Source: Candidatus Heimdallarchaeota archaeon
GTDB lineage: Archaea > Asgardarchaeota > Heimdallarchaeia > JABLTI01
Direction of reading: 5' to 3'
Length of the DNA: 64,000 bases
Assembly (NCBI GenBank): GCA_019058275.1
Contig: JAHLVW010000047.1
Coordinates: forward strand, 31,996 to 95,995
The notes under the pieces are model-generated. The model saw nothing but the letters and a program-made list of their open reading frames with translations, was not told the origin of the DNA and did no database searches. The position numbers were made by a program, and so were the translations under genes. Positions 2,453 through 44,189 of the stretch are shown here, one piece after another (position 1 is the first letter of the stretch; each line of letters opens with the position of its first letter).

Positions 2453-4768
2453 TTAATTTTTCTTAATAATGAATTCAGATTCGTGCTTCTTTGGACATGC
2501 TGCGAAAATTATGAGATTCTCCTTGGTAAACAAATCAATTTTTGTTGGAACAAGGGTTTCTGAACCACACTTTGAACATTTGATTTCCAAAACATCTTCT
2601 TCCTCTTCTTCATCACCGAAACCGATGATAGTATCTTCGTGACCTTTTTCACATCTAACTTTAAGAACATCTAACCCAAGCATTTCATTATATTCTCCTT
2701 GTTGCCAAACGATTTTGCTACTACACTTCTTGCAAACCAATTCTGACTCTTCCTTTCCTTTCTGTTCTATTACTGACTCTAAGGAAATGTTGCTTATTAA
2801 TTCATCATGTTTCAAACCAAAATTAGCTAGCTCCATGCCTTCACCTATGTGAACTTTATTCATATCTTTCATTATAAGCGTTAAATCGTTGGAATGTTCT
2901 GCGAGAATTCCATCAAGCAATTTGGAGTATTCCTTAATAGCTTGTTCTAATCTTGTTATTATCTCTGTTAGTGTTATTTTGCTACTAATTGCATCCTTAC
3001 TTATAGATTTCAGAAGCTTCTGTAAAGCAGTTAATGCTTCTGATTTTACTGAGAATTTTTTCAAATCCTTGACATATTCATTTATAGCTATTCCAGTGTC
3101 TTTAGCTAAGTTAATTGCGAATTTCTCTAAATCATTCATTGCTTTATTTGCTTGTTTTACAGTAGGTTTGTAAGAAGGTCTAATGTATCTAGCAATTTTA
3201 CCTTCTAGATTGGGGTTAATACTAACGCCAAGTCCTTCTGAAAATTTATCTTCAAATTCAGAAATTGCTTTTGCTGCTTGAGCTAAACTTCCCTTAAGTA
3301 TCCCTTCTACAGTTTTTAGAGGTCCAAAATCATCAAGATTAACTGAACTTATTTTTACTAATGAATCATCAGATGGAATATCTATAGTATCAGTTTGTCC
3401 TAATATCTTGTTGATATTCTTGATTTTCTTAACAAATTTTTCTTGGGTTGTTACAATATCAGTGGCAATTTCCTTGAGAAGCAAATCGATATTCTTTCTA
3501 TAATCAAGTAGTCCTGGAAAAGCATCAACAATATCAACAAGGCTATTTGGATCTAAACAATTCCCCTTTGTTTCAGCAATCTCATCAAGGATTTTCTTTG
3601 TACTCTTACTTGGGGGAACTTGTTTTATAAACTCGTTTAATTTCTCTTCAATACTACCGTAAGTACCCTCAAAAGCTGATGTAGCCATTGCTGTTGCTTC
3701 TCGTATAATTTTCTCATCATTGACAAGCTTCTCATGTGGATCTTCTGCAACGACATCCACAGTTCTAACAAGAAACTTAGCTGCAGAAATAACCTTTTCA
3801 GAAGATTCTTTCATTTTTGAAAAACTAGTAGAGTTCATATGTATCTCTAGTTTGTACAATTTCTCGATATTCGTGATTAATTCACTAATATCTTTATCTA
3901 ATTCGGATTTTATCTGTTGGATATATGTTTGTCTGGTATCACTAAGTCTATCGTCAATTTTTCGAATAAATTTCAATGCTTTTGTGAATGCTTTGAAACC
4001 ATCTTTAAGCCAATTATCTATTGTTTCATTGACTTTTGAACAGTTTTCTTTTATGAAATCATCAAAGGCAGGACTAGCACGATAATTATTTAGCTTAGTT
4101 TGGAAACGATCATAAACATCTTCAAAAGCTTTAGAATGTGTTTTGAACCCTCGAGTAATGTAGTTTTCAGCTTTTTCAATAATTTCATGATATTTCTCAC
4201 GATATGCTTGTGTATAAACAACTTGTTCATCTCTACTAACTAAACCTTTCTTTGTTTTGGAATGGGTTCTAATTTCTTCCTCTAAAAGATCTATTTGATG
4301 TTTAATGTCAAGAATTTCCTTTTCAAACTTCACAATCGGAAAACCCAATTTAAGCTTCATATCTATAAGCATAGCTTCAACAGAACCATTTATTGTTCGT
4401 AAAATAATAGGTACATCATTAAGTGTAAGAAGAGCATTTTTTCCAATTTGATCAGTGTTTTTTGGTAAAACACCAATAAAAGATCTATCAATTCTTTTTC
4501 CTTGCATTTTTATTTGCTGAGTTTCTTCAAGAAACTTCAAATTTTCTTTAGCAGACTGTGCAAAATTCTCTATCTTTTCCCAAGATTGACTTTTCTTCTC
4601 TTTTTTTAGTTCCCCGATGAAATGGATTAAAGCAGGAAAGTCTTCTCCTTCAAAAGCAGACTTATCACCCATCGCCATAGAAGCTAATCGATCAATTTCA
4701 CGCACAATTTCATCGAGTTCGCCTAAAATAGTATTCCAATCATCTTTTTCAATAGTTGATTCTGACAT
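2453..4768 (-). CDS. large helical/coiled-coil protein with two C-terminal CxxC...CxxxH zinc ribbons
   Basis: 771-aa ORF of amphipathic helices; CKKC...CEKGH and CSKC...CPKKH at the C-terminus. Confidence 0.65.
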   Translation of the reverse strand: MSESTIEKDDWNTILGELDEIVREIDRLASMAMGDKSAFEGEDFPALIHFIGELKKEKKSQSWEKIENFAQSAKENLKFLEETQQIKMQGKRIDRSFIGVLPKNTDQIGKNALLTLNDVPIILRTINGSVEAMLIDMKLKLGFPIVKFEKEILDIKHQIDLLEEEIRTHSKTKKGLVSRDEQVVYTQAYREKYHEIIEKAENYITRGFKTHSKAFEDVYDRFQTKLNNYRASPAFDDFIKENCSKVNETIDNWLKDGFKAFTKALKFIRKIDDRLSDTRQTYIQQIKSELDKDISELITNIEKLYKLEIHMNSTSFSKMKESSEKVISAAKFLVRTVDVVAEDPHEKLVNDEKIIREATAMATSAFEGTYGSIEEKLNEFIKQVPPSKSTKKILDEIAETKGNCLDPNSLVDIVDAFPGLLDYRKNIDLLLKEIATDIVTTQEKFVKKIKNINKILGQTDTIDIPSDDSLVKISSVNLDDFGPLKTVEGILKGSLAQAAKAISEFEDKFSEGLGVSINPNLEGKIARYIRPSYKPTVKQANKAMNDLEKFAINLAKDTGIAINEYVKDLKKFSVKSEALTALQKLLKSISKDAISSKITLTEIITRLEQAIKEYSKLLDGILAEHSNDLTLIMKDMNKVHIGEGMELANFGLKHDELISNISLESVIEQKGKEESELVCKKCSSKIVWQQGEYNEMLGLDVLKVRCEKGHEDTIIGFGDEEEEEDVLEIKCSKCGSETLVPTKIDLFTKENLIIFAACPKKHESEFIIKKN

Positions 4769-4935
4769 TTTTCTAACCCTTTTTATTGTAAAATTTATCC
4801 CTATTATTCTATTATCTAAAGTAATGGAAAATAGCTATTGTTTTATTAATTATTTGGAAAAGGTATTAATATTTTAGTTGTTATCATTAATTAACTACCC
4901 GCAGATTTTATAATGGGTGACGGGGGTATATTTTA

Positions 4936-7314
4936 TTGTCTACAGATGAACAAATTAAATGTCAATCATGTGGAGCTATGGTGGCTAAAGGTCGTTTTTG
5001 TCCAAAGTGCGGTGCTATTCTTGGTGCTACGGAACTAGATGAAGTCAAAGATCAACTCGATAGACTAAATGAAATCAAGGATTTAACTAGCCAATTAAGA
5101 GCTAAAGTCCTTGATAAATTATCAATTGACTCCGAAAAACTTCTTCTTGCTTTTAGAGAAGAATTTTCTATTTTACATAGTCGCTTTGAAACTAAACACA
5201 AACAATTGTCAAAGAAATCATCAAAAAAGACCGCTAAGACGGAAACTACAGAAGGAGACAGAATAAATTGCAGAAGTTGTGGAGCGTCAGTTCCCAATAT
5301 TCGTTTCTGCAAAGAATGTGGCTCACAACTTCATGCAACACCACTTGATGAACTTAATGATTTAGCTAATAAACTAAATAATTTGGCTTTAATTTTCAGT
5401 AATTTCAAAGATTCCATTCAAAAGGATTTAGCTGATGATGAATTGGAACTTGCAAACAATATAGTTGTTCTTTTGAACCATTTCATTAACAGAATTAATG
5501 CAAAACGAAATGCTTTAGCAAAAACATTAGATGTACCAGTACCTGCTAGAAGACCAAAGGAGGTAAAAGTTGCTCCTGTTGGAGAACCTGGGGCTGAAGC
5601 AATGTTAGTAGAACCAGGTATAAAACAGCCAACTATTTGGTCAAATATTGAGAAGAATCTCTTAAATTATTGGTTCTTTTATCTAGCAATTATTCTCTTT
5701 AGCATCGGTGTCACACTTACAATCTACTTTGTAGTAGTTACATTAGATTCCAAAGTTTACCAGCTAGTTGTCATTTATGTAATAGGGTTCGTAATTATAC
5801 TTATAGGTCAGTTGATAACCTCAGGATTACGATGGCGTGCAAAGAAGAAACTTGCTGTGAAAAAGCAAGAAGTTGATTACAAACCAGGAGATACCATTGA
5901 AAGTGGAAAAGATAATAGAGTTACTGAAGAAAGAAGATTGCCTGTTCCTCAAATAACATCAGTAATCATCTTTATCGGATTTATTGTATTATTTGTTGGA
6001 GGCTTTGTAGGTTTAGCAGCCTATCAAAGTTTACTCATTCCAAAATTTCTTTTCTTATTAATTAGCTACGGAATATGTTTAGCTTCTATTGGACTTGGTG
6101 TATTAAACAATTCAGAAATGTTAATGCTGACAGGATTTATTCCTGCAATAATATTTACAGCGATTGATATTCTCTGGGAAATTGGTGGATCAGGTACTTC
6201 AAGCCTTGGAAGTGTTGGCAGCTTATTTGGATTTACACTACCAATAGTCTTTGCAGCTTTAGTTGCAATTTTCTTCAGTAAATGGTGGGGATCAGTTGTA
6301 ACAATGTCAGTTACACCGTTCCTACTAATGATACCCAAAATAAGTTCGCAAGTTGGATTGGAATTTATACCATTAATGCTTATACCAATAATGGTTGTAT
6401 TTGTAGTTCGATTTAGCAAAGATAAGATTCCTCTCCCAATAAGAAGGTCCTTAACAATTATGTCCATGCTCTTTCCATCTATTGTCTTATTTGTGTTAGC
6501 ATATCCATATGCAATTTATCAAACAGAACCAGCTTGGTCTAGAATCTATCCGTTTGAAATCTTCATAAGTTGTCTTGCAATCTTAGGAGTTTCATTTTAC
6601 TATAGATTTATTCAAGAAGAGTATCTTGAGATCAAGTCTGATCAACATTATATATGGATAGTCGGACAGATATTTGTCGGAGCAATATCTGTCTTCGCAA
6701 TAGCTGTCAATGATACACCTGTAACTACAGCACTATTCTTTGCTTCATATTTCATATTTGGAATACTTAGTGTACTGAAAATTATGAAAAAACATTTCAA
6801 TATTGCAAGTGCAATTGTATCATTTATCTTCGCAGAACTTCAAGCAATTCTATTATTAACTTTGAATAATCCTACAAGTATAGCACAAGATGTATTGTAC
6901 TATATTCTAGGAATATCATTCCTCCTATTAACAATAGTAAGTATTTTCATATCAAAAGTATTCATAGAATCTACAGCTCTATATACAATATGGTCAATTG
7001 TTTCAGGAGTAAATATAATTCTCCTAGGTTTACTTGGAACATTAAATGCTTTGTACGCTTTCTCAGGAATAATTTTGCTTCTAGTAACATCTCTGATAGT
7101 AAACTTACCTATAATAATTCCTCACATTAAAGAATGGAGGATGTACTCTATTGTCTCGTTGATTGTCAATGCAATAGTAATCAGCATCTTTCTACTGACT
7201 GGCAGCCTCAATTTGTTTGCTTATGAATCTCTAATTATTTTTGTGATCTTCATAGTAATCAACGTCTCAGCGTTTTTCGATTGGAAAGTAAAGGAGGTTA
7301 AAGTACTTGAATAA
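4936..7314 (+). CDS. polytopic membrane protein with two N-terminal double zinc ribbons (DUF2339-like membrane region)
   Basis: CQSCG..FCPKCG and CRSCG..FCKECG; many hydrophobic segments after about aa 240; TTG start. Confidence 0.65.
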   Translation: MSTDEQIKCQSCGAMVAKGRFCPKCGAILGATELDEVKDQLDRLNEIKDLTSQLRAKVLDKLSIDSEKLLLAFREEFSILHSRFETKHKQLSKKSSKKTAKTETTEGDRINCRSCGASVPNIRFCKECGSQLHATPLDELNDLANKLNNLALIFSNFKDSIQKDLADDELELANNIVVLLNHFINRINAKRNALAKTLDVPVPARRPKEVKVAPVGEPGAEAMLVEPGIKQPTIWSNIEKNLLNYWFFYLAIILFSIGVTLTIYFVVVTLDSKVYQLVVIYVIGFVIILIGQLITSGLRWRAKKKLAVKKQEVDYKPGDTIESGKDNRVTEERRLPVPQITSVIIFIGFIVLFVGGFVGLAAYQSLLIPKFLFLLISYGICLASIGLGVLNNSEMLMLTGFIPAIIFTAIDILWEIGGSGTSSLGSVGSLFGFTLPIVFAALVAIFFSKWWGSVVTMSVTPFLLMIPKISSQVGLEFIPLMLIPIMVVFVVRFSKDKIPLPIRRSLTIMSMLFPSIVLFVLAYPYAIYQTEPAWSRIYPFEIFISCLAILGVSFYYRFIQEEYLEIKSDQHYIWIVGQIFVGAISVFAIAVNDTPVTTALFFASYFIFGILSVLKIMKKHFNIASAIVSFIFAELQAILLLTLNNPTSIAQDVLYYILGISFLLLTIVSIFISKVFIESTALYTIWSIVSGVNIILLGLLGTLNALYAFSGIILLLVTSLIVNLPIIIPHIKEWRMYSIVSLIVNAIVISIFLLTGSLNLFAYESLIIFVIFIVINVSAFFDWKVKEVKVLE

Positions 7315-8947
7315 AGCTAAAAACGTTTCAGTAAAAGAGGAACAAAGATCACAATTTGAAGAAGCAGAAAAACAAGGTAAATTAGTTGTCCACAAAATTA
7401 CTCACCAAGTTATTGCATTAACAATTATTCATTTACTATACATTGTATTTGAAGCCTATAATGCATTTAATGAATCTTGGGTATCAGCTATAATCTATGG
7501 AGTAATTGCACTTGGTACAGTCGGATTTATTTGGTTGCAAAAAGATAATGCCAAATATCTAATACCAATTCCATTCATATCGCTATGTGTTATTGGAGGT
7601 ATTTTAGAAAATACTATTGTGATAACTACTATTTTCGGTGCTTATTGTATATTCTTCTATACCTTATTATTCTTTGAAAGAAAAACAACAGAGACTCTAG
7701 TTACAAACCTGTTTTCAGCTTTAACATTGCTTATCCTAACATCATTTATGTTATTTGATCAAGGATTTGTAAAAGTAGATTACATTGTTAATGTTGTTTC
7801 AGGAATTTGGCTCTTATGGGGCATAATCGTTTCAGCAGTTACTATTAGACACAAAGATAATTTTGGAATTCGTCTAGGTTATAGCATTGTTTTAACTTTG
7901 CTATGCTCAGTAGGACCATTTATCAAACCCGAAGGTATGCCTAACTCTAACCTATTTACATTAACTTGTGGCATTTTGTTTCTAATGGTTGCTATAATAT
8001 CAGTTGTACTCTTCTTTACAGAAGAATTCAATATGGGTAAATTCTTTGGAGTTATTGCTCCAATACTTGCCAGTATTGTGATATTCTCTTATTCATTTGC
8101 TTACAATTTCACATGGATTTCATCAATTCTAAATAAAGCATTTATTGTTGACTATGCACTTTTCATACCATTAGCACTATTTACTATGATCATTATTATA
8201 ATGAGATTCTACGAGAAACCAGATACTGAAGAACTTAGAACACTATCTGATGAAAGACGGAAGAAGAAGATCAATAATGATATGATTCTTTTTGGTATTT
8301 TTATTGGATTTATTATTGCCTCTATGGTAATGCTAGCTACTAATTGGAAATTTAATTGTATTAAAGGACTAGTAGTTTCTATTGCTTTCTTAGGCGCGAC
8401 AATTCCACTAAACATTCGTGTGACAACAACAAGCTCGCTTGTATCAACATTTCTATTCTTAGGATTAGTCCTCTCCAATGTTGAAAAATTACAGACAAAA
8501 TACATTTATATAATTCTATTAGCCATTTCTTCCACAATTCTACTATTTGCTATTGTTAATGAGTTGTTCCTACTTGGTGAACCATTAACAACGACTTTGT
8601 CAATTGTTTCAGCACTTGTTGGAATGGTTACAAGTATTTTATACTTCTATTCTGAAGATGTGCCTTTTAAGGTGATATGGACTAGCATTTCTTGGGCAAT
8701 TATTGGTATCATTTTGTTCGCTTATGGAATCATATTTAACAAAATATTTCTAAGAAGAAGTGGTTTAGCAATAATATTGTTTGATATTGTCTATTCTATA
8801 ATCACTATCAGTATAACATATCGTGGTTGGCAAATGGGTGTAGCCTTCATAATCCTAGCAATGGTATTAATGGGATGTATCTACTTATTCCGTTGGTCAG
8901 AAAAGAAAACCTCTACAGAAGAAGAACAAGAAACAATACTAGAATAA
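7307..8947 (+). CDS. polytopic membrane protein (DUF2339-like C-terminus), coupled to upstream gene
   Basis: Overlaps upstream stop by 8 nt; TSISWAIIGIILFAYG...LRRSGLAI C-terminal pattern; many TM segments. Confidence 0.6.
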   Translation: MNKAKNVSVKEEQRSQFEEAEKQGKLVVHKITHQVIALTIIHLLYIVFEAYNAFNESWVSAIIYGVIALGTVGFIWLQKDNAKYLIPIPFISLCVIGGILENTIVITTIFGAYCIFFYTLLFFERKTTETLVTNLFSALTLLILTSFMLFDQGFVKVDYIVNVVSGIWLLWGIIVSAVTIRHKDNFGIRLGYSIVLTLLCSVGPFIKPEGMPNSNLFTLTCGILFLMVAIISVVLFFTEEFNMGKFFGVIAPILASIVIFSYSFAYNFTWISSILNKAFIVDYALFIPLALFTMIIIIMRFYEKPDTEELRTLSDERRKKKINNDMILFGIFIGFIIASMVMLATNWKFNCIKGLVVSIAFLGATIPLNIRVTTTSSLVSTFLFLGLVLSNVEKLQTKYIYIILLAISSTILLFAIVNELFLLGEPLTTTLSIVSALVGMVTSILYFYSEDVPFKVIWTSISWAIIGIILFAYGIIFNKIFLRRSGLAIILFDIVYSIITISITYRGWQMGVAFIILAMVLMGCIYLFRWSEKKTSTEEEQETILE

Positions 8948-35672: not shown

Positions 35673-36074
35673 TCAAAAAAAAATTGCGAAAAGGTCTTCT
35701 ATCTGCTCTAAAGCTCTTTTGGCTGGTAGTACTGCTAAACCTGATCTCCTAGCTTTTTGACCTTTAAATTTAATACCCATAGTAAAATTAGCAGATCTAG
35801 CTATTAGAAGACTGCCTTGTTCAGTTCTTATATTCATGTGTCTAAATTTATCTTCAGAATTTATACTTTGCAATGCTAACAAGGAACTAATGCTTTTTAT
35901 AGTATCAACAAGCAGCGCTGCTGTGCCTTCCACATTAATTGATCCTTTATGTTCATGTACACTGCAACATGGTAATCCTTCTTCTGTTGTAAGTACAATA
36001 TCAGAAGCACATGCTCTTTCCATCAAAGCACGTAGGATTTTCTCAGCAGTTTCATTTATTGACTCATCTTCCAT
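35673..36074 (-). CDS. roadblock/LC7 (MglB-like) domain protein
   Basis: IVLTTEEGLP, EGTAALL, FRHMNIRTEQGSLLI, GLA...KRALEQI pattern. Confidence 0.8.
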   Translation of the reverse strand: MEDESINETAEKILRALMERACASDIVLTTEEGLPCCSVHEHKGSINVEGTAALLVDTIKSISSLLALQSINSEDKFRHMNIRTEQGSLLIARSANFTMGIKFKGQKARRSGLAVLPAKRALEQIEDLFAIFF

Positions 36075-36241
36075 AAATAAACCTCAATTTAAAGGATCAA
36101 TCTAAGTCTTTCATTATCTCTTAAATAATTTTCAATGGTTACATTTAGAAAGAACACAATATCCTATAAAGACTTAATGTTATAACCATTCTTCTCTTCG
36201 ATAAAATTTAAGTCACATTTAATCTGAATTGCAATTGCTAA

Positions 36242-36997
36242 TTAAAATAACAAGGGATATGCGAGCTCATGAAGGATTTCGTATTTCTTTCTTTCAAAAT
36301 CTGCTTCATCCAACAATTCGTTAAGGAATGTAAATTCATATTCATTTAACGCTACAGGGAAAACCTTCTTATCGATTTCTTCTGTCTTTACTTCCAAGAA
36401 TTTCAGAATCAATGGACCAAGATAACCAGTTTCTGCATATATTTGAACAATCCAATGGAAGAAATTCATTAGTTCACTTATTGTTTCATTTGGGATAGCA
36501 TCAACGATAATGTTGTAGGATGTCATTAATGCTGCTCTTCTTGTAAGATAATCTTTAGTGTCACCTATTTCGATTAAAGGTGGTAACAGATCAATGTTTG
36601 CCCAACTAGATAATGCCATAATTATAGCGTATTGCAAATCTTCCTTGCTTTTCTTCATAATATCTAACAAAACTGGTAGAGAATCATCATGTCCGATTTT
36701 ACCAAGTGCTTCTATAATAGCAAGTCGTTGAGCCAATGAAGCTTCATTTAATTCGAGGTGCAATTGTCGTACGATATCTTTGTTTGGCTTCTTTTCATAA
36801 ACTCTTGCAATAGCCATTGAACATGCATTTCTTACATTCCAAGATGGATCTTCTAATCTATCAATGAGCTTGTCAATGGATTCTAAACCACCGACATCAA
36901 GAAGTGTTAAAGCTCCTTTAACTCTATCAATTTCTTTCTCTGAAAGAAGACGTCTTCTTGCTCTTCCTCTTTGAAATGCTCTTCTAATAAACGCCAT
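36242..36997 (-). CDS. HEAT-repeat protein
   Basis: LIDRLEDPSWNVRNAC..AI, QRLAIIEALGKIG..SLPVLL, TRRAAL repeats; ATG after GAAGGTG SD. Confidence 0.85.
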   Translation of the reverse strand: MAFIRRAFQRGRARRRLLSEKEIDRVKGALTLLDVGGLESIDKLIDRLEDPSWNVRNACSMAIARVYEKKPNKDIVRQLHLELNEASLAQRLAIIEALGKIGHDDSLPVLLDIMKKSKEDLQYAIIMALSSWANIDLLPPLIEIGDTKDYLTRRAALMTSYNIIVDAIPNETISELMNFFHWIVQIYAETGYLGPLILKFLEVKTEEIDKKVFPVALNEYEFTFLNELLDEADFERKKYEILHELAYPLLF

Positions 36998-36998
36998 T

Positions 36999-38588
36999 TT
37001 ATGCACCTTCTTGTTGACTTACAACCTCATCAATCAACACTCTTACAGAAGCTAATTTTGATTGACTCATCTTTTTCAGATGACTGTAATCTACTTTCTT
37101 TCTTGTTTTAGCAGTACCATAGATTGCCTCTGATGTTCTACCAGTATCTTCTTCATCTTCAGTTTCTTGTTTTTTAATGAAATCTAATAGTTCTTTTGAA
37201 ATGTCAATTGCACGAGTATATATTGGTATGTCCCATGGTGAAAGAGGGTTTTCGTCTAATTTTCCTACTGAAAGGAGTGTTCCAACAACCATTCTATCCA
37301 TTTTCTTAAACATTATAATATCTGGAAAACCTGGAGTTGGCATTTTGAAATCCTCACGATAAAGGAGACTATGATTATGTAATATGAGTAATTGTTCCAA
37401 GCTAATAGATTCATCATCTATCTCAAAAACATAAATAGGTTTAGCATCTACTTTGACATAACCATAGAATTGAAAAGCTGAGCTTCCAGCAAACCATAGA
37501 CCGACATTGATACATTGATTTTTGTTAATATATTTAATATAATCATCTAATTGATCCCAAATATTTTCATAAATATTCCAAGTCTTGCGCCAATAACCAC
37601 TAGTATCAGAATGCCAATAAACATTTCTTGATTGTAAATTTTCTCGAAGTTCCTTAAGAATTTTGCGAACTTCTGGTCCTCCTCCAGCTTTGTTTATCAA
37701 ATCTAAGTCACTTTGCATCTCGAGAGCTTGTTTAATCACTTCTTTAGGTTGATCAATAATCTCTTCAAAACCCATCTCTAGAAGTTTTCTTGACAGATTA
37801 TTAACTGGCGGTCCATAAAGTGGTTTCAGCAATTTGGGTATAGTGCTAAATGGATATTCACCTTTTTCGAGTATCTTTTCTGCAATATTTTTGTGAATAT
37901 AATTTGCAAAAGCTTCAGTTAGAAATCCTGTGAGATTTTTCTTCTTAAGCAAATCAGATCTTTTGTTAATATAGCTAATAATTTCTAACAAGAAATTTTG
38001 AAATAATGTAACCTTCCTGGATGATTCAGGTGGAATATAGAATTCTTGAACACCAAATGTTGATAGTAATCTAATTACAGCTACCATATCTTGGAAATAT
38101 GGTAAACCCCACGTAATTTGCTTGTCTTCCTTTAATCCATAAGCATTGTTCATGATCAGTTCTTTTATAATCATGTCCATTCGGTAGATTTCAGTTCGTG
38201 TTTCACTATCATTTGATGCACTTTTATCAGCAAAATAAGCATGAGCAAATGCATGAATAAGCATAACTCTTAACGTGAAATCTCTTTCTGGATTATCCTC
38301 TAATTCGAAGGGTAAACTCATGTAAATCATTGTTGGCTTGCTAGGAAAAATCGATATACATTCATCAGGTAGGAAATCTCTTGATCTAGATTTTCTTAAA
38401 CTTTCAATCATCTCTTGTGAAAGTACAGCATGTGGACTACCACCTAATTCCATTATTTGATAAAGACTTGAATGTAATTCGGGGTCGATGAAAACCAGTA
38501 CTTTGTAATCTTCTGGTACTTCACCAACGAAATCTTCGAAATCTTTTCTAGCTTGATTATAAATTTCAACTAATCGTGGATTGTCCAA
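36999..38588 (-). CDS. hypothetical protein with degenerate zincin-like motif (HAxxH...E)
   Basis: VMLIHAFAHAYF and downstream LTEAFANY; overlaps the vWA gene and abuts the HEAT gene. Confidence 0.55.
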   Translation of the reverse strand: MDNPRLVEIYNQARKDFEDFVGEVPEDYKVLVFIDPELHSSLYQIMELGGSPHAVLSQEMIESLRKSRSRDFLPDECISIFPSKPTMIYMSLPFELEDNPERDFTLRVMLIHAFAHAYFADKSASNDSETRTEIYRMDMIIKELIMNNAYGLKEDKQITWGLPYFQDMVAVIRLLSTFGVQEFYIPPESSRKVTLFQNFLLEIISYINKRSDLLKKKNLTGFLTEAFANYIHKNIAEKILEKGEYPFSTIPKLLKPLYGPPVNNLSRKLLEMGFEEIIDQPKEVIKQALEMQSDLDLINKAGGGPEVRKILKELRENLQSRNVYWHSDTSGYWRKTWNIYENIWDQLDDYIKYINKNQCINVGLWFAGSSAFQFYGYVKVDAKPIYVFEIDDESISLEQLLILHNHSLLYREDFKMPTPGFPDIIMFKKMDRMVVGTLLSVGKLDENPLSPWDIPIYTRAIDISKELLDFIKKQETEDEEDTGRTSEAIYGTAKTRKKVDYSHLKKMSQSKLASVRVLIDEVVSQQEGA

Positions 38589-39963
38589 GTCTCATACTCT
38601 CCGTTACAATAGTCTTTGCTAGTACATCCATCCTTGATGGATTTATAACAATTGGATAAGTAATACCTCGTAATGCTCTTCTAGTATCTTGCCAGATATC
38701 AGTTAATTTCATTCTTTCAGAACCAATGAGAAAATACGATACTTTCCATGTTCTACTTTGATCTCTAGTTACATCTCTCAGCAAGCTGTTTAATTCCATA
38801 TAACAATTTCTTGTTACAGGATCAATACTATCTCTTTCTTCCTCAAAATAGCTGAGCAAGCTTCTAGATGGGGTGGGGTCATAACCAGGAATCAATTCAT
38901 TTGGTCTGCCATCTGTTACTATAATGAAGTGAATATCTCTATTTTGTGTGTTCTTTTTCACTTTAGCATGATTAATTGCTGATTTTATTGAAGCACTCAT
39001 GGGAGTTCTTCCTTTGGCTGTAGCTGTAAGTAGAAACCGTTCCAATTCATATTCAGTGCTAACAACTCTTCTACTCTTAGAAATAGGAACTACCGCAGTT
39101 CGGAATGCCTTTTGATTTGTTCTTCTTGATCTGCCTTGAGACTTAAAGTAATAGAAAATCGCTAAAGAAGTTAACAATGCACCCTCAAGTCTTGAGAAGT
39201 GAGACCCTTCAACAACATTTCTCATAGATTGAGAAGTATCAACAATAAGGTAAATTTGAGCATTGCGATCTTTTTTCATAACAACAATATCATCAATATC
39301 AATTGATTTTGGTGGCACGGTTTGTGATGTTAACATTGAATGTTCAAATGTTTTCTTCTTGTGGATTTTACCTCTTGGACGGACAATTGTATCAGTTGTT
39401 GGTTTTGCAGGCATTTGCCTTGCTAACCAATTACCCAATTGATTTCCTAAAAAGTCCATAACTTCTTCTCTTTTAATTCGCATTTTGTGACCAAAACGAT
39501 CTGTAATTTCAATGTCAGTTAATTCTTCCAAAGTTCTAAGTGATTCACTGAGTTGTTTTTTGTATTCAGCTGTTCCCTCAAAACCCTTAAGATGCTTTTG
39601 AATGAAATCCTCAATTTCCTCTTTAGTCTGCAATTCACCCATGTTAACTTTCAATAAAGCATCAGGTAAAGTATTGTTTCCAAGATACTCAAGTATTTCA
39701 AGATTGCGAATTAGATCCTCTTCTTCCAATGGTTCCAATGGTGTAACAATTAATTTTCTGCGAATATTATTTACAGCAATTGCATTTTCCAAGGACATAC
39801 CAAGAACTAATGCTTCTCTTGAACTCTGTCCTTTTCGAGGATCTCGCCATTTTTGTAAAACACTTGCAGCATCGGCAAAATCAAATATAAAATCAGGATC
39901 GCGCCAAATCATCAGAGGGTCTGAAAATCTTTCACGACTGATCATGTGTATTCTATGAGGCAT
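38566..39963 (-). CDS. von Willebrand factor A (vWA) domain protein
   Basis: MIDAS motif LIVDTSQSM, G.TPM, IIVTDGRPN; GKIH.KKT linker typical of AAA-associated vWA proteins. Confidence 0.88.
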   Translation of the reverse strand: MPHRIHMISRERFSDPLMIWRDPDFIFDFADAASVLQKWRDPRKGQSSREALVLGMSLENAIAVNNIRRKLIVTPLEPLEEEDLIRNLEILEYLGNNTLPDALLKVNMGELQTKEEIEDFIQKHLKGFEGTAEYKKQLSESLRTLEELTDIEITDRFGHKMRIKREEVMDFLGNQLGNWLARQMPAKPTTDTIVRPRGKIHKKKTFEHSMLTSQTVPPKSIDIDDIVVMKKDRNAQIYLIVDTSQSMRNVVEGSHFSRLEGALLTSLAIFYYFKSQGRSRRTNQKAFRTAVVPISKSRRVVSTEYELERFLLTATAKGRTPMSASIKSAINHAKVKKNTQNRDIHFIIVTDGRPNELIPGYDPTPSRSLLSYFEEERDSIDPVTRNCYMELNSLLRDVTRDQSRTWKVSYFLIGSERMKLTDIWQDTRRALRGITYPIVINPSRMDVLAKTIVTESMRLGQSTIS

Positions 39964-40022
39964 CTTTTGTGCTCTCCTTTATCCATTAAAGCTTGTAGTA
40001 ATTGAAGTAGTTGCACTTTGGA

Positions 40023-41600
40023 TTATATGTGATCAACTAGCAACAATTGCTCATAACTTGTTTTTAATTGCTCAATGACTGTTTCTTGGATTTTCTTTGA
40101 TTGTTTATCAATTCCTTCGTATCTTGTGATGATTTGTATTAACTCCTCATCAGTTAATGCTCTCATCTTATCGATGTCTTCTGAGATCGAATCAACAGTT
40201 GTCAATTCACCTTCAGATTTAATCTCTCTTCTAAGCATTGTTTTAACTTCTTGAATGGCATCATTGATTAGATTTCTTGGGATATCAAATAACTCAACAA
40301 TGTGTTTTGCGTCATCAAGAGTTAGCATTGCTACATCATCAGTGATATAGAATTCATCTTTTCTAAGGACCGTTTCACCAATTAAGCTGTATAAGGTTCG
40401 TAAATCAACATGAGGAGTTCTTTCAGGATCATGGATATCAATCAAGGATTTAAAGAACATATCTCGAGTAATTTTCTTTCTTGCATAAGCTTCAGTTTCA
40501 CCAGATTTTAAAGCACCAGGAATGGATAAATCAGCCATTAAACCAATAAACTGAATAGCTAATTTGCTCACACTTTTCTTTCCAAATGACTTTACTTTCT
40601 CCAATAGCTGAACCAATGCTGGGTTTGCTGTCATTGAATTAAGACATAGGGTGAGATGCTCTTTGAACATATCTTCAACGATATTAATTCGCTCTAATTT
40701 TGTTCTTGCTGGCCATAGAACTTCAGGGATACGATTAATGATTGGCTGAGCTTCTTCACCAAAAACGCTAAGAGGAGCGTTAGAAGTGAAGATCATTGCA
40801 CCATCAACAAAAGCTGGACGACCTTGAATACTATATTTGATTCCACTTGGATCTTCTAGAAAGCCCATTAAAGCTTCTAGAAAGTTCAATGGTAACCTTT
40901 GAATTTCGTTTACAACAACAAATCCTTGTGAGAGAACACCTACTTTGTGAGCCATTGGTGAGAAAGTTGTAGCTGTCTCACCGCCAAATAATTGTTCCAA
41001 GTTCTCTACACCAGCTAAAAGCATATATAATCCTTCAGGATCATTACGAGGATCAATTTGAGCAACATTAACTACTGTTTTCTCAGCTTTAACAGCTTTT
41101 AAAGCTTTAAGAATCAAATCAGCTTCAATTGCTACAACATCAGATGTTCGATCTAAGTTAACATCAGTAGATGCTACTTTCTTTATTGAGTTCATAATAT
41201 TCTTTTTACAGAAGGGACAAAGACTTTTCAAAACTTCAGCAGATGCTTCTGGATCTTGCTTGAATGTTTCTGCTACATGAATTAAATAACCTGCATCTTC
41301 ATTGAAAGGACATCCTTCAATATGCCATTTCTTTTCATTAATCGCTTTGGTTAAGTGTTTTAACAAGGTTCTTGCAAATAGCGTTTTAGCTTCACCAGTA
41401 GGACCAATTAAAAGTACCTTTCCTGATACTGCGACTTTATCCATAACAATTCCTTTTGAATGTTCGTTACCACGAACTGCTGGATCTTCATTTATTTGCT
41501 TTCGTAATTCGGGTTCATTCAAAAGTCTTCTAACAGAACATCCTTTATATCCTTTCTTTGCTAAAGATGCTATTGTTTGTACCATTTTTCTTTCTTCCAT
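40023..41600 (-). CDS. AAA+ ATPase, MoxR/Mg-chelatase-related (Rv0958-like) family
   Basis: Walker A LLIGPTGEAKT, GCPFNED, Walker B VVNEIQRL, IQG...MIFTSN, PIINR Arg finger. Confidence 0.8.
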   Translation of the reverse strand: MEERKMVQTIASLAKKGYKGCSVRRLLNEPELRKQINEDPAVRGNEHSKGIVMDKVAVSGKVLLIGPTGEAKTLFARTLLKHLTKAINEKKWHIEGCPFNEDAGYLIHVAETFKQDPEASAEVLKSLCPFCKKNIMNSIKKVASTDVNLDRTSDVVAIEADLILKALKAVKAEKTVVNVAQIDPRNDPEGLYMLLAGVENLEQLFGGETATTFSPMAHKVGVLSQGFVVVNEIQRLPLNFLEALMGFLEDPSGIKYSIQGRPAFVDGAMIFTSNAPLSVFGEEAQPIINRIPEVLWPARTKLERINIVEDMFKEHLTLCLNSMTANPALVQLLEKVKSFGKKSVSKLAIQFIGLMADLSIPGALKSGETEAYARKKITRDMFFKSLIDIHDPERTPHVDLRTLYSLIGETVLRKDEFYITDDVAMLTLDDAKHIVELFDIPRNLINDAIQEVKTMLRREIKSEGELTTVDSISEDIDKMRALTDEELIQIITRYEGIDKQSKKIQETVIEQLKTSYEQLLLVDHI

Positions 41601-41609
41601 TAATTTTTT

Positions 41610-42158
41610 TTATTTTTTCTTTTCTGTTTTTTTAGTTTTTGTAGAAGATGATTTCTTTTTAAGCACTTTTGGTTTTATTCCCAAAACCTCAATATACTCA
41701 TCTAACCAATTGAAACAGGCTAGTATATCTTCCTTTTTATTCTCATGAATTTCCATAACATTCCATAACCTATCAGTTAATCTGATTAATGAAAATGCTT
41801 CAATAATTTCTGAAGATGTTAAGGCTATAGCTTTTTCTGCATTATAACTAGCAATTAAAGCTGGAATGTTAACCGATCCATTATTCCATACAAACATTTC
41901 CCAGAGGTATTCTTTAATTTTGGACAATTCATCCATTTTAGAAGAATTGACTAAGAAAATTGTTCCATCAGTTTTTCTTAGCAATGCATCGCGTAATTCT
42001 TGGTCGAAAACTGGTTCTTCAGTGCTAAAAGTATACAATGGAGTCTTTTCTTTAGGATCTAATGCATTTTCTTTGATAACATCGATTATGTAATCTCTTG
42101 TTTCTGTTTTCTCTCCAATAAAGAGAATATGTTTTGGTGGTTTTTGCTTTTTGAACAT
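41610..42158 (-). CDS. Arf/Sar-like small GTPase fold with lost G-boxes (pseudo-GTPase), polybasic tail
   Basis: QELRD.LL.KTDGTIFLVNSS, IPALI, ALTSSEI..AFSL..LTDRLWNV and ACFNWL match the Arf C-terminal half; G1 reads GEKTETRD; no DxxG or NKxD. Confidence 0.7.
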   Translation of the reverse strand: MFKKQKPPKHILFIGEKTETRDYIIDVIKENALDPKEKTPLYTFSTEEPVFDQELRDALLRKTDGTIFLVNSSKMDELSKIKEYLWEMFVWNNGSVNIPALIASYNAEKAIALTSSEIIEAFSLIRLTDRLWNVMEIHENKKEDILACFNWLDEYIEVLGIKPKVLKKKSSSTKTKKTEKKK

Positions 42159-43130: not shown

Positions 43131-44189
43131 CTATTTGGTTTCAGCTTTCATTCTAGATTGTGCAATCAATTCAAATCCCATTGCATTACACATTACTGGA
43201 TTATCTGGAACAACAACTTCCTCTGGTGATTTGACGATGTTTTCTTTCCACATCATTTCCTTAAGTACATCTCCAAAAACATATGAACCACCACCAGTTA
43301 GGATTACTCGTTCTATCCAAGCATCGGGTGGAAGAGTTCCAAGTAATCTTGAAGTTTCATCAATTACTATTTCTGCAATATTTTGTATATAGTACTCTTT
43401 TACTTCAGAAACATCATATTGTTGTCCACCAATCATAACTGCTGATAAGTTCTTCTCAATAGTTTTCATTAAGTCAAATGGTCTGATAATTTTGCTGGTT
43501 TGTTCTTGTAAAGTTCTAGCCATTCTCGCTGTCAAAGTATCTACTGCTTCTTCTAAACTTCCACTAGCAGTTCTCATTAATCTTCCTTGATAAACAGTTA
43601 AGATATCAGTTGAACCATGACCAATGTCAACTATGATTGCGTCAACAGCTCGACTCTCACCTGATGTTTTTAATATCTGATAGTATGAACCATATGGTTC
43701 AGGTAGTACCAAACACTTTTTAACATTAATATTATAACTATGGGTTTCTCCTGTTGCATCGTTTCTAACATTAATTTCCATTTCTTCAGAGAGTCCTTTT
43801 GATAAGGTAGACATTTCATCTTGAGATGTTGCTACAGGCACACCGGTGGCAATGAGCACTTCCTCTCCATCTTTCTTTATGAACAAAGATAATGCAGCTT
43901 TAATTGCCAAGATAGCATCCTTTATACTTTTCATTTTTCCTTCAGATGCAAGTGCTCTTTTAATTTCACTCTGCAACCGAGCTAACTCGCCAATAAAGAA
44001 AGTTTGTCCGCCTTCTTCTAGCACCAAATTATTTTCCAATGACTTATCTAAAGTCATCCCTGTCCAACCGGGATTTGGATCACCTATGATTGAGGGAATC
44101 CTTACTAAAGATTTCCCACCATTTGATGATATTTTAATGGTGCTAGTACCAAGGTCAATTCCGACACTTCTTAAGACTTTTTTAGACAC
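43131..44189 (-). CDS. actin-fold ATPase (ParM/StbA-like, actin superfamily)
   Basis: Phosphate-1 GIDLGTSTIK, PSIIG, TGVP, connect-1 LPEPYG, phosphate-2 VDIGHGSTD, adenosine LTGGGS, NAMG. Confidence 0.9.
   Translation of the reverse strand: MSKKVLRSVGIDLGTSTIKISSNGGKSLVRIPSIIGDPNPGWTGMTLDKSLENNLVLEEGGQTFFIGELARLQSEIKRALASEGKMKSIKDAILAIKAALSLFIKKDGEEVLIATGVPVATSQDEMSTLSKGLSEEMEINVRNDATGETHSYNINVKKCLVLPEPYGSYYQILKTSGESRAVDAIIVDIGHGSTDILTVYQGRLMRTASGSLEEAVDTLTARMARTLQEQTSKIIRPFDLMKTIEKNLSAVMIGGQQYDVSEVKEYYIQNIAEIVIDETSRLLGTLPPDAWIERVILTGGGSYVFGDVLKEMMWKENIVKSPEEVVVPDNPVMCNAMGFELIAQSRMKAETK

Follow-up and report, generated by a model that had tools for sequence, protein, structure and literature searches.

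Our data show that a stretch of 64,000 nucleotides from a metagenome-assembled genome (MAG) of a Candidatus Heimdallarchaeota archaeon (assembly GCA_019058275.1, contig JAHLVW010000047.1, positions 31,996 to 95,995; this whole stretch is called the window below) carries on its minus strand an operon of five genes. They encode an Arf-fold pseudo-GTPase (pseudo-Arf), an AAA+ ATPase, a protein with a von Willebrand factor A (vWA) domain, a SpoVR-like pseudo-zincin of 529 aa and a HEAT-repeat protein. We think it probable that this Heimdallarchaeia operon specifies one ATP-driven remodelling machine, an architectural counterpart of the bacterial PrkA-YeaH-SpoVR system that works with a pair of the MoxR/ChlI-ChlD type. 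What the analysis shows directly is the content and order of the genes, their conservation, the state of the sequence motifs and the folds, together with in-silico support for a contact between the SpoVR-like and HEAT proteins.

In the window the operon is followed by a sixth gene, and the preliminary description of the locus had proposed all six as a candidate new module. Their common orientation, coordinates and spacing are borne out by the listing of open reading frames (ORFs), all on the minus strand: pseudo-Arf (182 aa, 41610-42158), the operon's first gene; the AAA+ ATPase (525 aa, 40023-41600); the vWA protein (465 aa, 38566-39963); the SpoVR-like protein (529 aa, 36999-38588); the HEAT protein (36242-36997, 251 aa from the ATG at 36997); and a divergent roadblock/LC7-like protein (133 aa, 35673-36074). 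In gene order they are separated by 9 nt, 59 nt, an overlap of 23 nt, 1 nt (counted from the ATG at 36997) and 167 nt. The longest ORF of the HEAT gene is 36242-37006 (254 aa), and orthologues favour the start at 36997. The genome is an assembly of 4.1 Mb in 118 contigs, 92.8% complete, and public records name the proteins of the cluster ‘hypothetical’.

We judged the extent of the conserved unit from whole-genome searches of 60 relatives, from 20 fetched loci and from 54 loci of species-representative genomes. The AAA+ and 529-aa genes co-occur at constant spacing in 9/11 genomes of family f1, to which the window belongs, 17/18 of f2 (which includes Ca. Heimdallarchaeum endolithica and aukensis), 5/5 of f4 and 1/1 each of f5 and f6, and were not found in f3 (0/22) or f7 (0/2) by the searches of the 60 relatives. 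In tblastn comparisons the AAA+, vWA, 529-aa and HEAT genes keep the same order and strand in 20/20 fetched loci, while identity to the window proteins in f2 is ∼52%, ∼43%, ∼37% and ∼31%, respectively; identity drops with taxonomic distance for the operon proteins. The 54 loci, all from MAGs of the Heimdallarchaeia class (two of them labelled otherwise), were mapped with hidden Markov models (HMMs) of the six families, with counts restricted to loci whose contig continues. Here the vWA gene stands directly after the AAA+ gene in 53/53 loci, the 529-aa gene next after vWA in 47/47, and the HEAT gene next after that in 43/43. Thus the cluster is real, with its order and strand recurring both in the 20 loci and in the 54, and the arrangement of six genes is well beyond chance. 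A scatter in which only the AAA-vWA pair stays linked in relatives is not what we find, as the 529-aa and HEAT genes never part from that pair. Median gaps are +18.5 nt between pseudo-Arf and AAA+, +33 nt between AAA+ and vWA, –8 nt between vWA and the 529-aa gene, –4 nt between the latter and HEAT, and +162 nt between HEAT and roadblock; the negative values indicate that the vWA, 529-aa and HEAT genes are translationally coupled.

The first gene is somewhat less constant. Pseudo-Arf is found directly upstream of AAA+ in 42/51 loci, and in the other 9/51 (f4 genus g5, f5 and a few more) a different gene takes this position; in one of these nine pseudo-Arf lies 1.8 kb off on the opposite strand. 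In the f4 genus the place of pseudo-Arf is occupied by a conserved protein of ∼193 aa (L018 6795-7379, L019 6911-7492, L027 2454-3257, on loci turned to put the operon on the plus strand) with a zinc-ribbon-like CxxC...CxxC N-terminus and a helical C-terminal half, which may be a replacement subunit. At another locus (contig JAEOTI010000439, L094 407-6840) a TnpB-type gene (Cas12f1-like_TNB) lies between AAA+ and divergent vWA and SpoVR-like genes, and a transposon-associated insertion appears to have split the operon.

The operon is present in single copy per genome, with a fixed architecture. Outside f1 its flanking genes are housekeeping ones that vary between families; in f2 they encode NUDIX, ornithine carbamoyltransferase (OTCase), a pyridoxal phosphate (PLP) enzyme, UvrB and UvrC. 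In a phylum-wide sample of 301 Asgard genomes the 529-aa family is confined to this class (f1 8/10, f2 28/29, f4 9/11, f5 1/1, f6 3/3; f3 0/21), and only 21 members turned up when HMMER was run in full over 1.84 billion cluster representatives. Three weak partial matches to the 529-aa profile in another Asgard family (E ∼1e–5, profile positions 251-358, in 583-aa proteins) were taken as coiled-coil noise. The conserved unit therefore consists of five genes, pseudo-Arf, AAA+, vWA, 529-aa and HEAT; this core is vertically inherited and specific to Heimdallarchaeia.

As to the proteins themselves, four assignments made beforehand hold when relatives are compared: the Arf-like protein, described as a pseudo-Arf, lacks the P-loop in every lineage examined; the AAA+ protein, thought to be of MoxR/chelatase type, is placed in the MoxR/ChlI clade; the metal ion-dependent adhesion site (MIDAS) of the vWA protein is complete and invariant; and the 529-aa protein, described as a degenerate zincin, has a predicted zincin-like N-terminal fold in which H[A/S]xxH replaces HExxH.

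The 529-aa protein provides the link to SpoVR. No Pfam family matches the protein of the window. Its predicted fold comprises a zincin-like N-terminal half with H112-A-F-A-H116 and E225 (in EAFANY), a long helical insertion between these motifs and a C-terminal alpha/beta domain. The three best structural matches in the ESM Atlas are SpoVR clusters, the top one with a template modelling (TM) score of 0.57 on the query and 0.62 on the target over 386 residues spanning positions 1-517, both sides being predicted structures. Foldseek of the model against the PDB gave nothing at E ≤ 0.001, a profile search of PDB sequences found no match for the family, and the SpoVR models (PF04293/PF24755) hit 0/9 members at E up to 10. 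When the family profile was aligned with 28 canonical SpoVR sequences by hhalign, the match was sub-significant (E 0.0027, probability 11%, 185 columns); within it three blocks pair in the same order, S.P.IYL with SNPCIAYL (strand), HAFAHAY with AHA.FGHN (helix) and EGFA.YI with NEGCATY.HY (helix). Of the full-length members, 34/44 retain H-[A/S]-x-x-H together with the Glu further downstream, and 10/44 have lost one or more of these residues, some being devoid of any of the metal ligands. HExxH is found in 0/44, its second position being occupied by A, S, T or L. Since the HExxH Glu is missing in all members and the metal ligands in some, the SpoVR-like protein could hardly act as a conventional peptidase; judging from these motifs, it is likely zincin-derived, with a conserved function that would be independent of the metal site.

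Its translationally coupled neighbour, the HEAT protein, carries a HEAT_2 match (4.9e–18, Pfam) and a conserved C-terminal tail; matches to PBS-lyase HEAT families are weak and well under the family cut-offs. We modelled a complex of the two proteins from nine-row alignments of each, in three runs and with three controls. The median score was 0.70 (0.71, 0.00, 0.70) versus 0.00 for the best control; in the benchmark the mark of 0.70 is met by 58/80 solved complexes and 2/110 mismatched pairs. Agreement between runs was at least 0%, and the partner predicted local distance difference test (pLDDT) value was at least 79. In the modelled interface residues 213-254 of the HEAT protein contact residues 184-197, 381-383, 405-421 and 441-454 of the SpoVR-like protein, and invariant residues are found on both sides: F183/Y184/P186/P187, N405/H406, F414, P419 and S450/P451 of the SpoVR-like protein and P217, E222, L231 and P251 of the HEAT protein. 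The modelling supports binding of the two proteins, with the C-terminal tail of HEAT as the predicted docking site.

The AAA+ protein of the window matches AAA_5 and AAA_22 in Pfam weakly, below family cut-offs, and most of nine members match Sigma54_activat, AAA_5, AAA_22 and Mg_chelatase. Its best solved folds are RavA, ChlI and MCM, the superposition on ChlI/BchI covering ∼245 residues, which puts the model in the fold clade of MoxR, ChlI, MCM and NtrC; its protein-language-model neighbours in the ESM Atlas are archaeal AAA_5/Mg_chelatase proteins of 480-545 aa. The Foldseek list is topped by HslU at poor TM (0.17-0.25), probably due to the insertion between Walker A and Walker B, and this match was not used for classification. 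The insertion is helical and Cys-bearing, and the C-terminal region is helical as well. Walker A reads GPTGEAKT, with Ala before Lys, and Walker B is hhhhNE (VVNEIQ), with Asn for Asp, in all 21 sequences. Thus the protein departs from the canonical patterns GxxxxGK[ST] and hhhhDE, while Lys, Thr and the catalytic Glu are retained; K72, E232, the sensor-1-like N274 and R290 are invariant even when relatives of 35-42% identity are counted.

Two such relatives, 41-42% identical (L093 7365-9551, L095 5835-7990), occur in MAGs labelled Promethearchaeota and Hodarchaeota with no vWA, SpoVR-like or HEAT gene alongside. They are preceded by a conserved 192-aa protein, which by its sequence looks like a winged-helix DNA-binding protein, and flanked by SRP54, RIO1 and a KH protein. 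Another ChlI/Sigma54-type AAA+ of 536 aa (L104, 6307-7917), with an insertion of ∼200 aa between Walker A and B, adjoins a Toprim gene and has no vWA partner.

In the vWA protein an N-terminal region of ∼230 aa with no known fold precedes the vWA domain, whose MIDAS residues D242, S244, S246, T320 and D351 are invariant among nine diverse members; D-x-S-Q-S is present in 20/20 loci. Family matches are weak: VWA_2 and VWA_CoxE in Pfam, a putative cobaltochelatase vWA (7.7e–6) and BchD-ChlD (0.0059) in NCBIfam. The nearest Atlas clusters contain archaeal VWA_2 plus Rv0959_3rd proteins of equal length.

For pseudo-Arf, the Pfam Arf match (1.8e–7, 31.2 bits against a cut-off of 22.3) covers model positions 79-174 only, that is, the C-terminal half, where FWE..W and LSLIRLTDR are strongly conserved. 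None of the nucleotide-binding motifs G1 GxxxxGK[ST], G3/switch II DxxG and G4 NKxD was found in the protein of the window or in 14 orthologues, which between them represent every lineage with the gene; the P-loop region reads ...FIGEKTETRD... in the window and ...MGNDTPAARN... in f2. The genome of the window has 40 Arf-family matches. A conserved Arf-derived pseudo-GTPase is an unusual fate for a member of this family, which is expanded in Asgard archaea. A comparison of L009, L014, L024 and L025 shows that the C-terminal tail (41610-41680 in the window) is polybasic in f1, the family with the roadblock gene, and acidic in f2, which does not have that gene.

Many bacteria and some archaea carry the PrkA-YeaH-SpoVR trio, which is tied to starvation, stress and sporulation and whose mechanism is poorly understood. 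In a canonical bacterial locus (L097) PrkA (640 aa, AAA_PrkA plus PrkA domains) is followed by DUF444 (428 aa) and SpoVR (504 aa), and there is a 4-nt overlap between the DUF444 and SpoVR genes. The archaeal operon resembles PrkA (YeaG)-YeaH/YhbH-SpoVR (YcgB) in its order of AAA+, MIDAS vWA and SpoVR-type genes, in the overlap of the last two of these and in similar protein sizes; the third protein shares with SpoVR its predicted overall architecture and the motif order S.P.IYL, HA..H, (N)EGFA.Y.H. It differs in that the archaeal ATPase has no PrkA C-terminal domain and combines a MoxR/ChlI-like fold with an Asn-Glu Walker B, in that two dedicated genes, pseudo-Arf and HEAT, are added, and in that the Pfam models of PrkA, DUF444 and SpoVR do not match the archaeal proteins. 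Searches of the window's genome, which is 92.8% complete, turned up no canonical trio, and canonical SpoVR was found in only 1/301 Asgard genomes. There it lies on two contigs of ∼4 kb (L087 823-3111, L091 1257-2792) of a MAG with 6% contamination; these copies are likely bacterial contamination. One of them is 762 aa long, and its SpoVR match is interrupted between model positions 44 and 43, the pattern expected of an intein-like insertion.

It could be argued that the AAA+, vWA and 529-aa proteins are extremely diverged true orthologues of PrkA, YeaH/DUF444 and SpoVR. The trio would then be a single ancient module with the kinase-like domain of PrkA lost, and not a pair of MoxR/ChlI type to which a SpoVR-like protein was recruited. 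The order and coupling of the genes as in the canonical trio and the SpoVR-like third gene would fit, and hhalign aligns the AAA+ profile with one PrkA over 47 columns around Walker A that run past the P-loop into a shared motif Y-x-I-x-G-[CS]-P. However, a comparable G-C-P motif follows Walker A in BchI, and the hhalign scores, each against a single sequence, are equivalent for PrkA (32.0), a genomic MoxR (32.9) and a ChlI-like paralogue (39.1). AAA_PrkA (PF08298) and PrkA (PF06798) hit 0/9 AAA+ members and DUF444 (PF04285) 0/9 vWA members at E up to 10, while Sigma54_activat, AAA_5, Mg_chelatase, VWA_2 and VWA_CoxE do match; hhalign of the vWA profile against one DUF444 aligned the vWA core only (E 0.0015, probability 17%). 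The profile search of PDB sequences with AAA+ returned only matches at the level of Walker A and missed PrkA (9xip), and the best folds are RavA, ChlI and MCM; the absence of 9xip from the fold lists themselves is uninformative either way, as the fold library ends in April 2026. We consider such orthology of all three proteins unlikely. As a specific tie of the AAA+ protein to PrkA is not demonstrable, we see the link with the bacterial trio in the order of the genes and in the SpoVR-like protein in third place, and regard the motor-adaptor pair as MoxR/ChlI-ChlD-like.

A different history is possible, although we hold it only tentatively: a non-orthologous replacement, in which a SpoVR-type pseudo-zincin, the partner of PrkA and YeaH in bacteria, came under the drive of an AAA+/MIDAS pair of MoxR/ChlI type, unrelated to these, and gained two obligate partners, the HEAT protein docking on it and an Arf-fold protein that has lost nucleotide binding.

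With the MoxR-vWA pairs (RavA-ViaA, NorQ-NorD, CbbQ-CbbO, CoxD-CoxE) and with ChlI-ChlD/BchI-BchD the operon shares an AAA+ protein of the same clade next to a vWA protein with a complete MIDAS. Unlike them, it has an ATPase of 525 aa with a Cys-bearing insertion, a long helical C-terminus and a Walker B Asn in all members, as well as three extra fixed subunits, and no oxidase, Rubisco, carbon monoxide dehydrogenase (CODH) or ChlH client gene is found nearby. This relationship raises the question of metal or tetrapyrrole insertion in the manner of class I chelatases, with the HxxxH...E protein and a CpcE/NblB-like HEAT protein in the role of ChlH/CobN. MoxR-vWA pairs such as NorQ-NorD do insert metals (PMC13036017, PMC9976466). 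The superposition of AAA+ on ChlI/BchI, the weak matches of vWA to cobaltochelatase and BchD and of HEAT to PBS-lyase HEAT families, and the three potential metal ligands in 34/44 SpoVR-like proteins all point the same way. On the other hand, neither ALAD/HemB (PF00490) nor CobN/ChlH (PF02514) was found in the genome of the window, at the completeness given above, the HEAT matches are far under their cut-offs, and in the 10/44 SpoVR-like proteins that lost at least one ligand residue the operon is still intact. Chelatase-like insertion thus seems improbable.

A MoxR-type AAA+, a vWA and a third component also make up the layout of the vWA-MoxR ternary conflict systems, whose hallmarks are effectors that vary, a VMAP or iSTAND partner and sporadic distribution (Kaur et al. 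2020, PMC7159879), and in which peptidase-like domains are common and inactive enzyme domains serve as scaffolds. Could the operon be such a defence system, as the preliminary description hinted, with the pseudo-peptidase as sensor or effector? We regard this as very improbable: no variable effector is fused to the vWA or third protein, no VMAP-C/iSTAND component or mobility is seen, the operon is single-copy, vertical and fixed in architecture, its divergence tracks taxonomy, its flanks are housekeeping genes, PADLOC gave trivial matches only (E above 5e–4), and the peptidase appears inactive in every member, judging from its motifs. A maintenance or stress role like that of the bacterial trio, rather than defence, is suggested by the vertical inheritance, the single copy and the housekeeping surroundings.

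The roadblock-like gene had been counted as part of the module, and this view does not survive comparison: the gene was found in f1 only, in 9/11 genomes and always after HEAT, versus 0/49 genomes of other families. It is a family-level accessory added behind the operon. The assignment is sub-threshold (Robl_LC7, PF03259, 0.0049, 17 bits against a cut-off of 23, model positions 3-87, nearly the entire model); profile matches in the PDB, both nearly full length, are 7f8f, a Robl_LC7 protein (E 0.03, residues 13-100), and dynein roadblock (E 0.45). Within f1 it is the most conserved of the six proteins, with 74-85% identity, and the spacer that separates it from HEAT measures 133-397 nt in seven f1 loci. 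In the window this spacer (36075-36241, 167 nt) is A+T-rich, with TATA-like words and GAGGT ahead of the ATG, and the gene probably has its own promoter there. The genome contains at least seven clear roadblock genes, and the gene behind the operon is the most divergent. The f1 cluster resembles MglA-MglB and Rag-Ragulator in combining an Arf/Ras-fold protein with a roadblock-like one; unlike in those systems, the Arf-fold protein is without nucleotide motifs, which leaves no GTPase cycle for a GTPase-activating protein (GAP) or guanine nucleotide exchange factor (GEF), the roadblock assignment is below threshold, and the gene was not found in the other operon-bearing families. The basic tail of pseudo-Arf and the roadblock gene together suggest a local elaboration in f1, possibly for membrane recruitment.

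The neighbouring PH-like membrane gene and actin-fold gene (43131-44189, 1 kb from the operon) lie outside the conserved unit; together with the other flanks of the operon they are common to four same-genus loci only. In the same genome a canonical MoxR (AAA_3, 9e–66) and DUF58/vWA pair (L105, with ORFs 2725-3732, 3782-5179, 5166-6545 and 6613-7662) is followed by a 459-aa protein without family and then by an ALP/ParM-like actin-fold gene of the same Pfam families as that of the window. The proposal that the operon serves a membrane-associated or cytoskeletal assembly with the roadblock, PH-like and actin-fold genes can draw on the polybasic tail, the highly conserved f1 roadblock gene that always stands behind the operon, the actin-like gene nearby and the similar ending of this second cluster, but gets no comparative support, as the PH-like and actin genes adjoin within one genus only, roadblock was not found outside f1, the f2 tail is acidic and the five-gene core occurs without any of these features, and we hardly give it credence.

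Returning to the remodelling machine as the reading we favour, we infer a hexameric assembly, the coupling of motor to adaptor, the parts played by pseudo-Arf and roadblock, and a housekeeping or stress role. The AAA+ protein of the MoxR/ChlI clade would form the hexameric motor, and its Asn-Glu Walker B would make hydrolysis slow or switch-like. This motor would work through the vWA partner, whose intact MIDAS would grip a partner or client by an acidic residue, while the SpoVR-like/HEAT heterodimer could be a non-catalytic dedicated adaptor or client platform. Pseudo-Arf, as an Arf-fold subunit that does not depend on nucleotide, may regulate the machine or localise it, and in f1 the roadblock-like protein might be a partner of the polybasic-tailed pseudo-Arf.

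Several points weigh against this. Common descent of all three genes with the bacterial trio is conjectural, as AAA+ and vWA carry no specific PrkA or DUF444 signal, and the SpoVR link draws on a comparison of predicted structures, one on each side, and on a profile alignment short of significance (probability 11%). With Asn in Walker B the putative motor may hardly hydrolyse ATP. The AAA+ protein would be able to work in another context, since its 41-42% identical relatives stand without vWA, SpoVR-like and HEAT genes. Pseudo-Arf is dispensable or replaceable in the nine loci without an adjacent copy. Finally, one of the three runs of the SpoVR-like/HEAT model scored 0.00.

As for novelty, our literature search found no paper on the cluster, and in this respect the preliminary description, which took the combination as undescribed, stands; the AAA-vWA-SpoVR order, by contrast, has a bacterial precedent in PrkA-YeaH-SpoVR. 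What is new is that an AAA+-vWA pair of MoxR/ChlI type is combined with a SpoVR-like protein in the layout of the PrkA trio and joined by two new fixed partners. To call its parts eukaryote-like was an overstatement, as the HEAT protein has repeats of the common PBS-lyase kind and searches of f3, a large group, did not turn up the cluster.

The operon would represent a lineage-specific Asgard machine, which is present in most Heimdallarchaeia families sampled and, in the genomes searched, was found neither in f3 nor in other Asgard classes. If the replacement took place as outlined, Heimdallarchaeia would possess an undescribed multi-subunit machine in which ATP hydrolysis by AAA+ replaces an Arf-like GTP cycle, and SpoVR proteins in general would serve AAA+/MIDAS motors as adaptors or as platforms for clients. 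A second form of the trio with separate wiring would offer a comparative handle on the SpoVR subunit, as a non-catalytic platform to which an alpha-solenoid partner docks.

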